From Gammaproteobacteria bacterium (GTDB taxonomy: Bacteria > Pseudomonadota > Gammaproteobacteria > GCA-001735895), in assembly GCA_022340305.1 (NCBI GenBank), contig JAJDOF010000124.1, positions 6,396 through 70,395 on the forward strand: a stretch of DNA of 64,000 nt, given 5' to 3'. Each line of letters begins with the position of its first letter. Within the stretch, counting starts at the first letter, position 1. Shown here piece by piece: positions 43,542 to 54,462 of this stretch. A model generated the notes under the pieces. The model searched no databases. It worked only from the letters and a program-made list of their open reading frames with translations, and was not told the origin of the DNA. The translations under genes and the position numbers were made by a program.

Positions 43542-43704
43542 GCAGTCTGACGGACTTAGGAATAATCTACTGCGGCGGTGGGAAATCGGCCCATTTTCCC
43601 GATCTTTTTCGTTGCGCAGTTGCGACTATGCGCCGCAAAAGATCGAAAAAATGGGCGCGATTTCGAACGCGCCCCGCTACGATTCCCTCAGTCCGGCAGA
43701 CTGC
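43542..43704. mobile_element. Degenerate 163-bp MITE-like hairpin element
   Basis: Imperfect terminal IRs GCAGTCTG(a/c)CGGACT, further nested inverted segments (GAAATCG, GCCCATTTT, CGATCTTTT), TA at left flank only, non-coding. Confidence 0.7.
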
Positions 43705-50992: not shown

Positions 50993-51016
50993 AGCGTTGC
51001 TAGCGCTGCGGTTACC

Positions 51017-51403
51017 ATGAACGAGGAAAATGTTCGACTCGACAAGTGGCTGTGGGCCGCGCGATTCTTCAAGACCCGGGCGCTGGCCGCCGGCGCGGTG
51101 AGCACTGGCAAGGTTCATTCTGGTGGCCAGCCCGTGAAGCCCTCGCGCGGAGTCAAAATTGACGACTGTTACGAAATTCGACGCGGTTACGAAAACTTTG
51201 AGATTGTAGTCAAGGCGCTCAGTGAACACCGGGGTTCGGCGACGACGGCACAGTTGTTGTACCGTGAAACCGAGAGCAGCGTCACCAGGCGCAAAGGCGA
51301 AGCCGAGAAGCGCAAGCTGGCGATGATGGCGCGCCCGCAGTCTGTGGGACGACCCGATAAAAAACAGCGCCGCCAGATTCGGCGCTTTATTGATAAGCCA
51401 TAA
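51017..51403 (+). CDS. hslR: Heat shock protein 15 (S4 domain)
   Basis: VRLDKWLWAARFFKTRALA, RPDKKQRRQ. Confidence 0.95.
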   Translation: MNEENVRLDKWLWAARFFKTRALAAGAVSTGKVHSGGQPVKPSRGVKIDDCYEIRRGYENFEIVVKALSEHRGSATTAQLLYRETESSVTRRKGEAEKRKLAMMARPQSVGRPDKKQRRQIRRFIDKP

Positions 51404-51440
51404 CCGGGCGTATGCGGCGGACCATGGCAAGGCCATCGCC

Positions 51441-52007
51441 ATGAACAGAGTATTTGTTTACGGCACACTAACCCGCATATCTCACCGAATTCCTCGGCAA
51501 TTGCTCCTGCATTGCTCTACCTCCGGCATCCCTGCAGTCGTACTGCGGGCGTCGTAAAGCGCACTGTGACGGGCTGTACTCCCGACGGCCGGCTTGACCT
51601 AGTGTCGACTACACGCTGCACCGACCGCTGGTCCGTGCCGCACGCCACAGCGTCTTTACGACGCCCTCGCTACGTAAATCGGTGAGATATGCGGGTTAAA
51701 GCGCGGCCAGGGTAATTCCCATTACCTTCAGACCGCGGAATTCGTCGGCACATTCAGCACCGAGTCGGTTTTCTCGATGTACGCCTTCGACGACTATCCC
51801 GCGCTATGCGAACAGGGTTGTCACGCGATTCATGGCGAAATTTATCATGTCAGCGATATCCCGTTTCGTTTGCTGGACGAACTCGAATGGTACCCGGATT
51901 TTTATCAGCGAATCGTAATCCCCACTCGGTACGGCGATGCCTGGATGTATATCGTCAAGGCTGCATTGTGTCACGGGAGACCATTGCTCCCGGGTAGCTG
52001 GCCCTGA
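51441..52007 (+). pseudogene. Gamma-glutamylcyclotransferase (YtfP/AIG2-like) gene interrupted by a MITE
   Basis: MNRVFVYGTL (51441-51470) resumes as KRGQGNSHYL...HGEIY...LDELEWYP from 51699; insertion carries in-frame TAA at 51555-51557. Confidence 0.92.
51471..51696. mobile_element. 226-bp MITE with 18-bp perfect terminal inverted repeats and TA target duplication
   Basis: ACCCGCATATCTCACCGA ... TCGGTGAGATATGCGGGT, flanked by TA (51469-70, 51697-98); internal 13-bp perfect IR 51547-59/51654-66. Confidence 0.92.
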
Positions 52008-52032
52008 TCGACAGCACAGGTATGGTTGTTGA

Positions 52033-54462
52033 TCAATACGGGGTGGTCTTGACGATTGACAGGATGCTGCTGCGTACCTCGGTGCTAAGCAGGTTGCGCA
52101 GGTCGAGGCTGACGAAGTCGAAGTTTGCAGCAAACTCGAGTTGTTGCTCGCTATTTCGCAGCAGGTACTCGCGCTCGATCATGGTGTCGATGAAGTCACG
52201 GAATAACAAACGGTCGAAAAAATCGGGCGAGTTGATGCCGTATAGCATCGAAATTTTCTGCGCCAGCAAGTGACAGCGATGCTCGAGCTCGCTTTCCTCA
52301 AGCGGTGTGGGCGAGGTTTGCCAGAGCAGGATAAAAGTCATGTAATAGCGTTCGAGGATGGGTTGTACGATGTGCGCGAGCCGCAGAAGTAGCACGAAGT
52401 TGTGGTGACTGCGGCGTGGACGCCGCAGATCGTTACCCAGGGGCTCGAGTAGCGCTTCATCGATCAGGCCGTCGATAAACTCATCGACGATCGCGTGGAG
52501 AGTCGCACCTGGCCATTCGAGTTGTAATTCGGATTTCAGAAACGGGTAGAGCAAGGCTATTTTGCGTTGCACACGATCGCGCGAGAGCCGGCGTACATTG
52601 CTAAAGCAGCAGGCGATCAGTGCAGGGATGACCAGCGTATGCAGACTGTTGTTGCGATAGTAGCCGAGTAATACCGAATCTTCGGGCTTGAGGTAGACGA
52701 TATCACCAAGTTCGTGATGGCGGATATGAATGATTTTCTGGCGGGCAACTCGCTCGATCTGCGTCCGCTCAAGCTTGCCTTCGATGCGAATCGACGCCAG
52801 GCAGGGAGCAGCGCGAATCAGGCGATGATGCAAGTCGATCTGGGTGATCAATTCCTCGATTTCGATACTCTGGCGCGGTGTGGCGAGTACTACCGTCGCG
52901 ATCGAATTGATCGGGTTGACGACGCAGGCGCGGCCGATACCCTGCATGATTTCAGCCCCTAGCTGTTGCAGGCTGGCCTGGTACCAGTCAGGTTTGTGCT
53001 GTATCTGTTCCGCCTGCTGCTCCCAGTTCGCGCAATGCCGGTGCAGCAGATCGCCCAGTATGATGGGTTCACCGAAACTGGCGGTAACCTTGCCGAAATG
53101 CCCCTTCAAGTGGAAAATAGCGCTAAGCGCGCCGAGAGTAGATTCCTTTTTCTTTTTGCCTCCGTAGAGTTCGCCGAGGTAAGCTTTGCCCTCCAGCAGC
53201 TTTTCGTAGCCGATGTAAACCGGGACGAATGCCAGCGGTCTTGCCCGGGTCCTGATGTACGCGTCAACCGTCATGCCGAGCATGCCGAAACGAGGCTTTA
53301 GCATTCTGCCGGTGCGGCTGCGTCCACCCTCGACAAAGTACTCCAGCGGCACCCCCAGCTTTACCAATTGCATCAGGTAGGCGCGCATGATGGCACCGTA
53401 GAGTCGATTGTCGCGAAAACTGCGGCGAATGAAAAATGCGCCCCCACCGCGCAGGATGCGGCCGATGAACGGAATGTTGAGGTTATCGCCGGCGGCGATG
53501 TAGGGTATTGCCAGGTTCTGCTCGTAGATGACGTAGGACAGCAGCAGGTAGTCGACGTGACTGCGATGGCAGGGAACATAGACCAACTGGTGGCTGAGTG
53601 CCGTTTCGCGCACTCGATCGGCATTATATACCTCGATGCCGCTGTAAAATCGGTTCCAGAAGCTGCGCAGCAGGCGCAGCATGACCTCGATGGTCAGTTG
53701 CGTAGAATCGGCAAAGATTTCCCGGCAATAGCGCCTCGCCCTGCGCTGGACACGCGCCTCGCCATCCCGCGCGCCGGCAATTTTCCGCTGCACCGATTCA
53801 TCGGCGATTACTTTTTCCACGAGCTGCTTGTGACTGGTGATTTGCGGCCCAAAGGTCGCCTCTCGCTGTTGCTGAAGCAGCGTCGTCAGCTGTTCCTGCA
53901 ACTGTTGTTCGTCATACCCGCTGTGCGCGAGAAGTTCGCGGAAGTCGAGTGTCTGCGAAAAGATCAGGCGCGCGTTGCGCCCGTGAATCAACAGAGTAAA
54001 AAAGCGGCGACTACGTCCCGCCAGTGCCCAGGTATCGGCAAACAGCACCTGTAGCCAATGCTTGTAACGCGCTAGCGGGCGTCCCCAGAACACCGATACC
54101 GCTACGATCTGCAGGTCGAGTTGGGGGTTGTTGGCGAAGGCAGCGACGAAATCACTCAGCATTGGCGAGCGCTTGCGCCGGCGTTTTATCCAGTCGGTAA
54201 CGGGGTTACGCGAGGCAATGCTGTATACCGAGTGATAGCGGTGCAGTTCCGCAATGGGAGTCCGCAGCAACGGATCGGGCATTCCGTGACGTCGGGTCGA
54301 CTCATTCAGTACCAGCAGGTCACTCAAACCGCGATCGGCAAGCACGTAGAGCACCGGTCGCGATGGATCGATGCCGACGGTCGGATCGGGTTGAGGGAAA
54401 ATCTCAACCTTGACCCACAGAAACAATATCCAGCGCAGTAGTCGATTGATCTGTTTTTTCAA
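52033..54462 (-). CDS. plsB: Glycerol-3-phosphate 1-O-acyltransferase
   Basis: PCHRSHVDY, GAFFIRRSF, FVEGGRSRTG. Confidence 0.96.
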   Translation of the reverse strand: MKKQINRLLRWILFLWVKVEIFPQPDPTVGIDPSRPVLYVLADRGLSDLLVLNESTRRHGMPDPLLRTPIAELHRYHSVYSIASRNPVTDWIKRRRKRSPMLSDFVAAFANNPQLDLQIVAVSVFWGRPLARYKHWLQVLFADTWALAGRSRRFFTLLIHGRNARLIFSQTLDFRELLAHSGYDEQQLQEQLTTLLQQQREATFGPQITSHKQLVEKVIADESVQRKIAGARDGEARVQRRARRYCREIFADSTQLTIEVMLRLLRSFWNRFYSGIEVYNADRVRETALSHQLVYVPCHRSHVDYLLLSYVIYEQNLAIPYIAAGDNLNIPFIGRILRGGGAFFIRRSFRDNRLYGAIMRAYLMQLVKLGVPLEYFVEGGRSRTGRMLKPRFGMLGMTVDAYIRTRARPLAFVPVYIGYEKLLEGKAYLGELYGGKKKKESTLGALSAIFHLKGHFGKVTASFGEPIILGDLLHRHCANWEQQAEQIQHKPDWYQASLQQLGAEIMQGIGRACVVNPINSIATVVLATPRQSIEIEELITQIDLHHRLIRAAPCLASIRIEGKLERTQIERVARQKIIHIRHHELGDIVYLKPEDSVLLGYYRNNSLHTLVIPALIACCFSNVRRLSRDRVQRKIALLYPFLKSELQLEWPGATLHAIVDEFIDGLIDEALLEPLGNDLRRPRRSHHNFVLLLRLAHIVQPILERYYMTFILLWQTSPTPLEESELEHRCHLLAQKISMLYGINSPDFFDRLLFRDFIDTMIEREYLLRNSEQQLEFAANFDFVSLDLRNLLSTEVRSSILSIVKTTPY

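Follow-up and report, generated by a model that had tools for sequence, protein, structure and literature searches.

A hairpin MITE with IS1380-like ends divides a YtfP/GGACT-family gene in a gammaproteobacterium

A gene of the YtfP/GGACT family is interrupted near its start by a short hairpin element. It is very probable that this element is a MITE of the IS1380 type which was pasted into a CTAA tetranucleotide, that it nulled an accessory GGACT gene, and that the broken allele is carried by all sampled members of the species. Unless stated otherwise, positions refer to the window, i.e. the whole stretch of 64,000 nucleotides that was analysed; G000 denotes the genome to which it belongs.

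Results

A GGACT-family gene is split within its YGTLK motif

The broken gene and its neighbours comprise the following features.

51017–51403, plus strand: hslR (ribosome-associated heat-shock protein Hsp15), the upstream neighbour (PF01479 S4; NF007673 with E = 2.8e-34, below that model's curated cut-off)
51441–51470, plus strand: codons 1–10 (MNRVFVYGTL) of the YtfP/GGACT-family gene, severed (sequence, PF06094, relatives)
51555–51557, plus strand: first in-frame stop (TAA) inside the element, in the frame of the host gene
51699–52007, plus strand: GGACT-family codons 11–112 and stop, open, with Met36 as the first start of their own (join, PF06094, 1XHS)
51777–52007, plus strand: orphan 76-aa ORF from Met36, the only piece found by gene callers (12 public contigs have it annotated as a GGACT gene of 76 aa)
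52033–54462, minus strand: plsB, convergent with the broken gene (NF003441 PlsB, E = 7e-253)

Starting with the ATG at 51441, the gene runs on the plus strand for ten codons and ends with ...ACA CTA at 51470. Past the insert and a TA at 51697–51698 the frame resumes with AAG CGC GGC and continues to a stop at 52005–52007. A scripted join of 51470 to 51699 produced a 112-aa ORF (MNRVFVYGTLKRGQGNSHYL...LDELEWYP...) whose product matches the Pfam profile GGACT (PF06094) over profile positions 1–118 of 120, with an E value of 9.6e-21 and 75 bits (curated cut-off, 22.8); no NCBIfam model matched the joined product. E. coli YtfP (PDB 1XHS) is the nearest solved structure, to which residues 3–101 align with an E value of 2.9e-18, the YG(T/S)L motif included. 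The broken gene thus belongs to the family of YtfP and of human GGACT (PDB 3JUB) but is split after residue 10, and the division of a GGACT/gamma-glutamylcyclotransferase-like gene within its YGTLK motif is confirmed.

These results bear out the original prediction on the anatomy of the gene. It had held that excision of 51471–51698 restores an uninterrupted 112-aa protein, as the scripted join did, and that a gene of the gamma-glutamylcyclotransferase type is interrupted in its YGTL-K motif, with which the PF06094 and YtfP matches agree. It had also pointed to a TAA at 51555 within a frame-preserving insert, which proved to be the first of four in-frame stops, and had stated that annotation shows only the orphan C-terminal 76 aa; 51777–52007 is indeed the sole listed ORF.

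A terminator-like hairpin (AGCGCCGCCAGATTCGGCGCT, then TTATTGATAA) is located at 51366–51386, in the last codons of hslR and just upstream of the broken gene.

The insert is a member of a multi-copy MITE family

The insert and its flanks are made up as follows.

51471–51696, no strand: MITE of 226 bp with a long hairpin and no long ORF (fold −63.8 kcal/mol, z −8.4; family alignment)
51472–51695, no strand: alternative boundary of the MITE on the 4-bp reading of the target duplication, 224 bp, ends CCCGC...GCGGG
51471–51488, plus strand: left terminal inverted repeat ACCCGCATATCTCACCGA (18/18 arm match)
51679–51696, minus strand: right terminal inverted repeat (TCGGTGAGATATGCGGGT on the plus strand; 18/18 arm match)
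51468–51471, no strand: left target copy, CTAA on the 4-bp reading, with TA at 51469–51470 on the 2-bp reading (empty site ACACTAAAGC in L072)
51696–51699, no strand: right target copy, TTAA on the 4-bp reading, with TA at 51697–51698 on the 2-bp reading (flank comparison)
51493–51542, plus strand: optional module of about 48–50 nt (TCGGCAATTGCTCCTGCATTGCTCTACC...CTGCAGTCG), in the long size class only (alignment columns 27–92; also solitary in other bacteria)

The terminal arms are perfectly complementary over 18 of 18 nucleotides, as originally predicted, and over 23 nt at 96% when the flanks are counted. We calculate that inverted repeats of 18 nt without a mismatch, within 400 bp, would arise by chance about 4e-4 times per 64 kb. 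Inside the 226-bp element there are only chance ORFs of 43–57 aa and no transposase gene. The total inserted length, 228 nt, is a multiple of three.

The closest relative found, a metagenome contig (L072) with 81% nucleotide identity, has an empty site (ACACTAAAGCGC). Across the site it reads TACGGCACACTAAAGCGCG, exactly the predicted join; in the window the insert is bracketed as CTA[A...T]TAA. This establishes that both the insertion and the duplication of its target are real. Seventeen of 19 related loci in genomes of other species encode an uninterrupted protein of 110–112 aa that starts with M(N/I)RVFVYG(T/S)L. Two short homologues, P0119 (76 aa) and P0120 (73 aa), were considered as instances of the same insertion in relatives and ruled out, as their lesions are different.

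Other copies are numerous. In this genome 27 pairs of ends enclose 52–246 bp, nearly all of them flanked by TA; there are also lone ends, each belonging to a MITE that is degenerate or truncated and has no transposase in its vicinity. The 16-nt end core (up to one mismatch) has 41 matches in this genome, 146 in G005 and 28–32 in two others (28 in G001) and is missing from about 40 of the 61 genomes of the genus, and a reversed control pattern had none in any genome searched. G005 contains about 73 paired copies, and no long pairs of ends were found in it. An exact 20-mer occurs in at least 118 metagenome contigs. Within this genome the closest sibling of the window copy is 86.6% identical, the family mean being 77.5%. 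With terminal inverted repeats, a target duplication evident from the empty site, small size, many copies and autonomous relatives that have the same ends, the insert is confirmed as a non-autonomous transposon with inverted-repeat ends (MITE).

A crude ORF survey suggests that the other copies are intergenic or at gene ends. Many of the copies in G000 (e.g. C56:41558, C92:108785, C123:6818) abut the end of a long ORF such that the flank and the first base of the element (TA+G) form its stop codon, and stop codons may often provide the context of the target CTAG/TTAA.

The ends of the MITE match those of IS1380-family insertion sequences

Among 80 metagenome loci, four pairs of ends were 1.55–1.75 kb apart. 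Two of these are IS elements (L208 and L159); the other two (L185 and L218) were ruled out as such since they enclose ordinary genes. In L208 the ends bound a 1705-bp element with a 454-aa ORF for an IS1380-family transposase (PF13701, E = 8e-149; NF033539, E = 2e-116). L159 (1748 bp) has a split gene; its interior shows only 64% identity, but the ends are the same and a terminus of 40 nt is conserved. Two deletion derivatives with the same ends measure 980 bp (L265, from G022 of the same genus, in which the transposase gene begins 95 nt from the end and has an internal deletion) and 781 bp (L146), and in L263 (G074, same genus) an end lies 250 bp past a C-terminal fragment of an IS1380 transposase. 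The ends in the window are identical to those of L208, L159 and L265 at 16–18 of 18 nucleotides. The same termini occur in two full-length IS elements that have diverged, in two deletion derivatives of independent origin and in the partial L263, which makes it very unlikely that insertion sequences had merely landed inside MITEs. Judged by terminal sequence, these comparisons show the MITE ends to be those of IS1380-family (piggyBac-related) insertion sequences.

The closest known elements are insertion sequences of the IS1380 family (IS1380, IS1247, ISPme1, ISEcp1; PF13701, NF033539). Elements of 1.7 kb with a gene for a transposase of this family have the same 16–18-nt ends, and the shorter derivatives link them to the MITE. 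The window element differs from them in having no transposase and in a body that consists of a long hairpin kept by compensatory changes; no internal similarity was found between the MITE and the IS1380-type IS elements. An IS1380-type transposase was not found in the window's own assembly, which is a MAG of 86% completeness. Multi-copy IS elements are often left out of assemblies. The relationship extends to eukaryotic piggyBac, which is alike in its CCC...GGG ends and its TTAA-like 4-mer target (here CTAG, TTAA and CTAA), and for which IS1380 has been used as the prokaryotic outgroup (PMC10813416). Our literature search found no paper on IS1380-derived MITEs.

The original prediction had derived the element from IS630/Tc1 transposons. 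According to this explanation, a TA-duplicating MITE derived from IS630/Tc1/mariner inserted very recently and is perhaps still polymorphic. TA-duplicating bacterial MITEs tied to IS630 do exist, RUP being an example (PMC2229807), and the TA on both sides and the perfect 18-bp repeats speak for such an element. However, a profile search of this genome with PF13358 (DDE_3) gave no hit, and none of 14 DDE_3 loci in the genus has these ends at up to four mismatches, save one chance-level hit with four mismatches (L085). No IS630-type transposase with these ends was found among the 61 genomes of the genus, whereas five IS1380-type elements have them. A search of this genome with PF01359 also gave no hit, but this profile matched none of 14 control genomes either. 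Moreover, a 2-bp duplication is not peculiar to IS630, as elements of the IS5/IS427 group make 2-bp repeats (PMC3281130, Table 2). Derivation from IS630 could thus not be upheld, and we regard this explanation, including its claim of recency (see below), as very unlikely.

The target duplication probably spans four base pairs

How much of the flanking sequence is duplicated was assessed in 67 TA-flanked copies. The base that precedes the left TA is associated, in the manner of a direct repeat, with the base that precedes the right TA (odds ratio 27, p = 7e-4), and the same holds for the bases that follow the two TAs (odds ratio 9, p = 4e-3). Each of two young copies has a sister elsewhere with 97–98% identity; both are flanked by CTAA/CTAA, a perfect and non-palindromic repeat, and depart from the sister exactly at the 'first base' of the element. 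These patterns point to a duplication that is probably the 4-mer YTAR, present here as CTAA and TTAA. IS1380-family elements make repeats of 4–5 bp, and that of ISEcp1 is 5 bp long. IS1247, also of this family, makes a 5-bp repeat and not YTAR (PMC3281130).

A duplication of the dinucleotide TA is the possible, more doubtful reading. At the window site it is perfect and requires no later mutation, whereas the two 4-mers (51468–51471 and 51696–51699) differ by one base. In addition, the bases that adjoin the two ends complement one another in 59 of the 67 copies and so act as an extension of the inverted repeat, whereas the outer bases are variable; among discordant cases, complementary inner bases outnumber complementary outer ones by 20 to 4, and copies that discriminate between the two readings favoured 2 bp by 21 to 4. 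Such an excess is not predicted by a plain 4-bp duplication. It could result from carry-over of the donor flank on a 4-nt overhang or from arm-matching as in the rest of the hairpin. Against the 2-bp reading, and with it the IS630 explanation, stands the direct-repeat signal, which spans four bases. Of the TA duplication originally predicted, then, the TA on both sides stands and lies within the duplicated stretch; the target itself is more likely the 4-mer CTAA/TTAA. A heteroduplex model with whole donor 4-mers was rejected since it predicts equal mosaic classes, and 13 versus 1 were seen.

The hairpin evolves by compensatory changes

Twenty-nine copies from three genomes were aligned and a stem of 65 pairs was drawn by hand. 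This stem is paired in 88.2% of the cells of the alignment. Changes occurred on both sides in 28 of the 65 pairs, as compared with 15.7 ± 2.1 in shuffles, none of 500 of which reached 28, and the covariation score was 0.184 versus 0.035–0.060 when the partners were slid by 1–3 columns. In 27 of the 29 copies folding is more favourable on the complementary strand, with a mean advantage of 9.1 kcal/mol (RNA parameters). The compensation may stem from selection during propagation or, alternatively, from templated correction between the arms.

Similar properties are known from REPINs, hairpins moved by RAYT proteins which often have compensatory changes and occasionally form tandem clusters (PMC3116915). 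It is therefore conceivable that a RAYT/Y1 tyrosine transposase moves the element in single-stranded form, as a hairpin of the REPIN kind, and that the likeness to IS1380 ends is secondary. The strand bias in folding and a tandem array on contig C123 fit this explanation, and the genome has five genes of the appropriate type.

G000:C131:13169–13498, C131:45945–46271, C126:12772–13098, C156:4769–5089 and C7:5009–5335: five Y1_Tnp (IS200/RAYT-like) genes

REPINs, however, adjoin their own RAYT gene and make no target duplication. Here, a search around the five Y1_Tnp loci found no flanking ends of the element at up to three mismatches (two chance-level hits have four), and the empty site demonstrates a duplication. 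Furthermore, the ends are common to DDE-type IS1380 elements, to which a series of deletion derivatives leads. We consider a REPIN-like origin even less likely than descent from IS630. A different short repeat, present in 8–10 copies, flanks one Y1_Tnp locus (L141).

The array mentioned above (G000:C123:6739–7177, outside the window) consists of MITE cores with a period of 181 bp; its two full units and one partial unit are 96% identical and have a single pair of ends.

Copies of the MITE are modular

Copies of the family consist of a core of about 178 bp to which either the 48-nt module near the left end, as in the window copy, or a different hairpin near the right end may be added. The module at 51493–51542 (TCGGCAATTGCTCCTGCATTGCTCTACC..CTGCATCCATGCAGTCG) is 94–96% identical to unannotated multi-copy sequences of Pseudoalteromonas replicons, which are solitary in AT-rich spacers. 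The 48–50-nt module was also seen at L261 (1501–1550), L065, L067 and L069 and is highly repeated in G009 and G013 of the same genus. In a plasmid collection only this 50-nt module had a match, and the MITE itself had none. In L067 the module occupies the equivalent position in a MITE with quite different ends.

A second hairpin element with different ends (GCAGTCTGACGGACTTAGG...) is present in the window at 43542–43704, upstream of rpsP. The G015 copy (L067) that has the ends of this second element carries the 48-nt module after ...AATCTAC, and the two MITE families thus have architecture and cargo in common. At four places in this genome (G000:C92:17126–17320, C56:57400–57562, C149:4846–5100 and C80:49700–49903) lone MITE ends are fused to another repeated hairpin module (..GACGTCATCCCCGCG(C/G)AAGCGGGGA..CTTG..), which shows further mosaic cargo in the MITE family.

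The broken allele encodes no complete GGACT domain

Without splicing, the frame of the host gene runs into the four in-frame stops of the element. Uninterrupted coding for the whole GGACT domain is absent from the window, as the frame stops at 51555 and the rest starts only at Met36. No ATG, GTG or TTG is present between the element and Met36, and a product initiated at Met36 is devoid of profile positions 1–36, among them the YGTLK motif. With no usable start and the YGTLK strand lost, the allele is presumably a null allele from which no functional protein would be made. Since plsB is convergent, the insertion affects no downstream gene.

One may ask whether the gene still works, its open frame being kept by selection: a shortened protein might start at Met36, or the element might be excised from the transcript or bypassed. 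Neither in the window nor in any public assembly are the 102 codons downstream of the insert interrupted, which is unexpected for an old pseudogene, and the length of the insert is a multiple of three. The stops, the missing start codon and the loss of YGTLK from the Met36 product argue against any such activity. An Rfam scan of 51000–52200 at E values up to 1 yielded no match and thus no self-splicing or other RNA. Sampled diversity is merely 0–0.8%, which gives little power to see decay of the remaining codons and is too low for an open frame to imply selection, and relatives lose the gene freely (see below). A gene that still works is less probable again than a REPIN-like origin.

The insertion looks fixed in the sampled members of the species

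Public assemblies (JGI, ENA, Logan) were searched for exact matches to the HslR protein and to the 76-aa ORF. Eighteen contig loci from 14 samples align to 51300–52100 of the window with 99.2–100% identity. The insert is present in 18 of the 18 loci that reach the site, and no empty site was found among them. The HslR look-up, which is independent of the state of the broken gene, recovered the insert in all nine loci with DNA. Three SNPs are located inside the element (51490, 51530 and 51536). In a set of 5.8 billion proteins no intact allele of the same species was found above 80% identity, the best hit being at 80%. The insertion postdates the divergence from the 81%-identical relative and is older than the sampled diversity, and it looks fixed in the sampled members of the species. 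The original prediction of a very recent, possibly polymorphic insertion, which is also the second half of the IS630 explanation, is at odds with its presence at every locus, with the internal SNPs and with a nearest sibling below 87% identity.

That a repeat was wrongly joined into the gene during assembly has a negligible probability: the MAG does consist of 169 contigs, and MITE copies break contigs in the relative G005, but this copy is unique in the assembly, a clean target duplication restores the ORF, and 14 samples processed by different pipelines yielded the same structure independently of one another.

GGACT genes are often lost in the genus

Among the other 60 genomes of the genus, 32 were found to have the GGACT gene. 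G005 has none between hslR and plsB. In several relatives the gene has been damaged by independent lesions: it is deleted after codon 18 and fused to the plsB flank in L048 (3001–3060), is interrupted in L072 (152–268) by about 117 bp of unrelated sequence, which begins roughly 20 nt downstream of where the MITE lies in the window, is 5'-truncated with a 9-bp in-frame deletion in L073 (1–360), and contains a TGA in G063. A distant GGACT paralogue is present in this genome at G000:C68:2005–2292. Being the last gene of its transcription unit and accessory in the genus, the gene is one whose loss is tolerated.

Discussion

The gene studied here is a real but ordinary insertional pseudogene, and its MITE joins the IS1380-type hairpin MITEs. 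We propose the following course of events. A transposase from an IS1380-type insertion sequence that is not present in this assembly, an enzyme postulated on the basis of the shared ends only, would have excised the MITE from another site. The MITE would have been pasted into the CTAA that spans codons 10 and 11 of the 112-aa YtfP/GGACT-type gene, with duplication of the target. As a consequence, the frame of the gene now ends after 38 residues, and the remaining 102 codons are left with no usable start before Met36 and without the first β-strand, which carries YGTLK. The broken allele has spread to all sampled members of the species.

To our knowledge, the mechanism of IS1380-type transposases has not been worked out. 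PiggyBac reportedly has a 4-nt overhang. It is tempting to speculate that a piggyBac-like cut-and-paste reaction carries along the 4-nt flank of the old site and that a single-stranded hairpin stage selects compensatory changes on one strand. A donor-inherited base beside each end at a non-identical YTAR site would account both for CTAA/TTAA in the window and for the 20-to-4 excess of complementary inner bases. This conjecture is rather unlikely to be correct as a whole, and we know of no bacterial insertion sequence for which either flank carry-over or a single-stranded hairpin stage has been described.

With regard to its architecture, the window MITE resembles Correia/NEMIS elements of Neisseria, ERIC of enterobacteria and RUP of Streptococcus pneumoniae, which are 100–200 bp long, have terminal inverted repeats with a terminal 5'-TA-3', duplicate their target and form a long stem-loop, and which are mostly intergenic and occasionally intragenic, as here (PMC2229807, Table 1). 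These families are unrelated in sequence to the window MITE. RUP is tied to IS630-Spn1, whereas the window family is tied to IS1380. Some families of the Correia/ERIC/RUP type hold open frames that fuse to host genes; by contrast, the window MITE puts stops into the host frame.

Two consequences concern annotation and gene content. What public pipelines have annotated as a 76-aa 'GGACT' ORF, in a dozen assemblies or more, is the 3' remnant of a pseudogene, and the species is without this YtfP-type enzyme, like many species of the genus. The MITE itself is one more case of a TA-flanked element that was read as mariner/IS630 and whose parent is IS1380/piggyBac-like. IS1380/piggyBac-like MITEs appear to be common in uncultured bacteria and are easily misfiled. 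Compensatory evolution of the hairpin, its strand bias and the mosaic flanks provide a testable handle on how IS1380-type transposases treat their ends.
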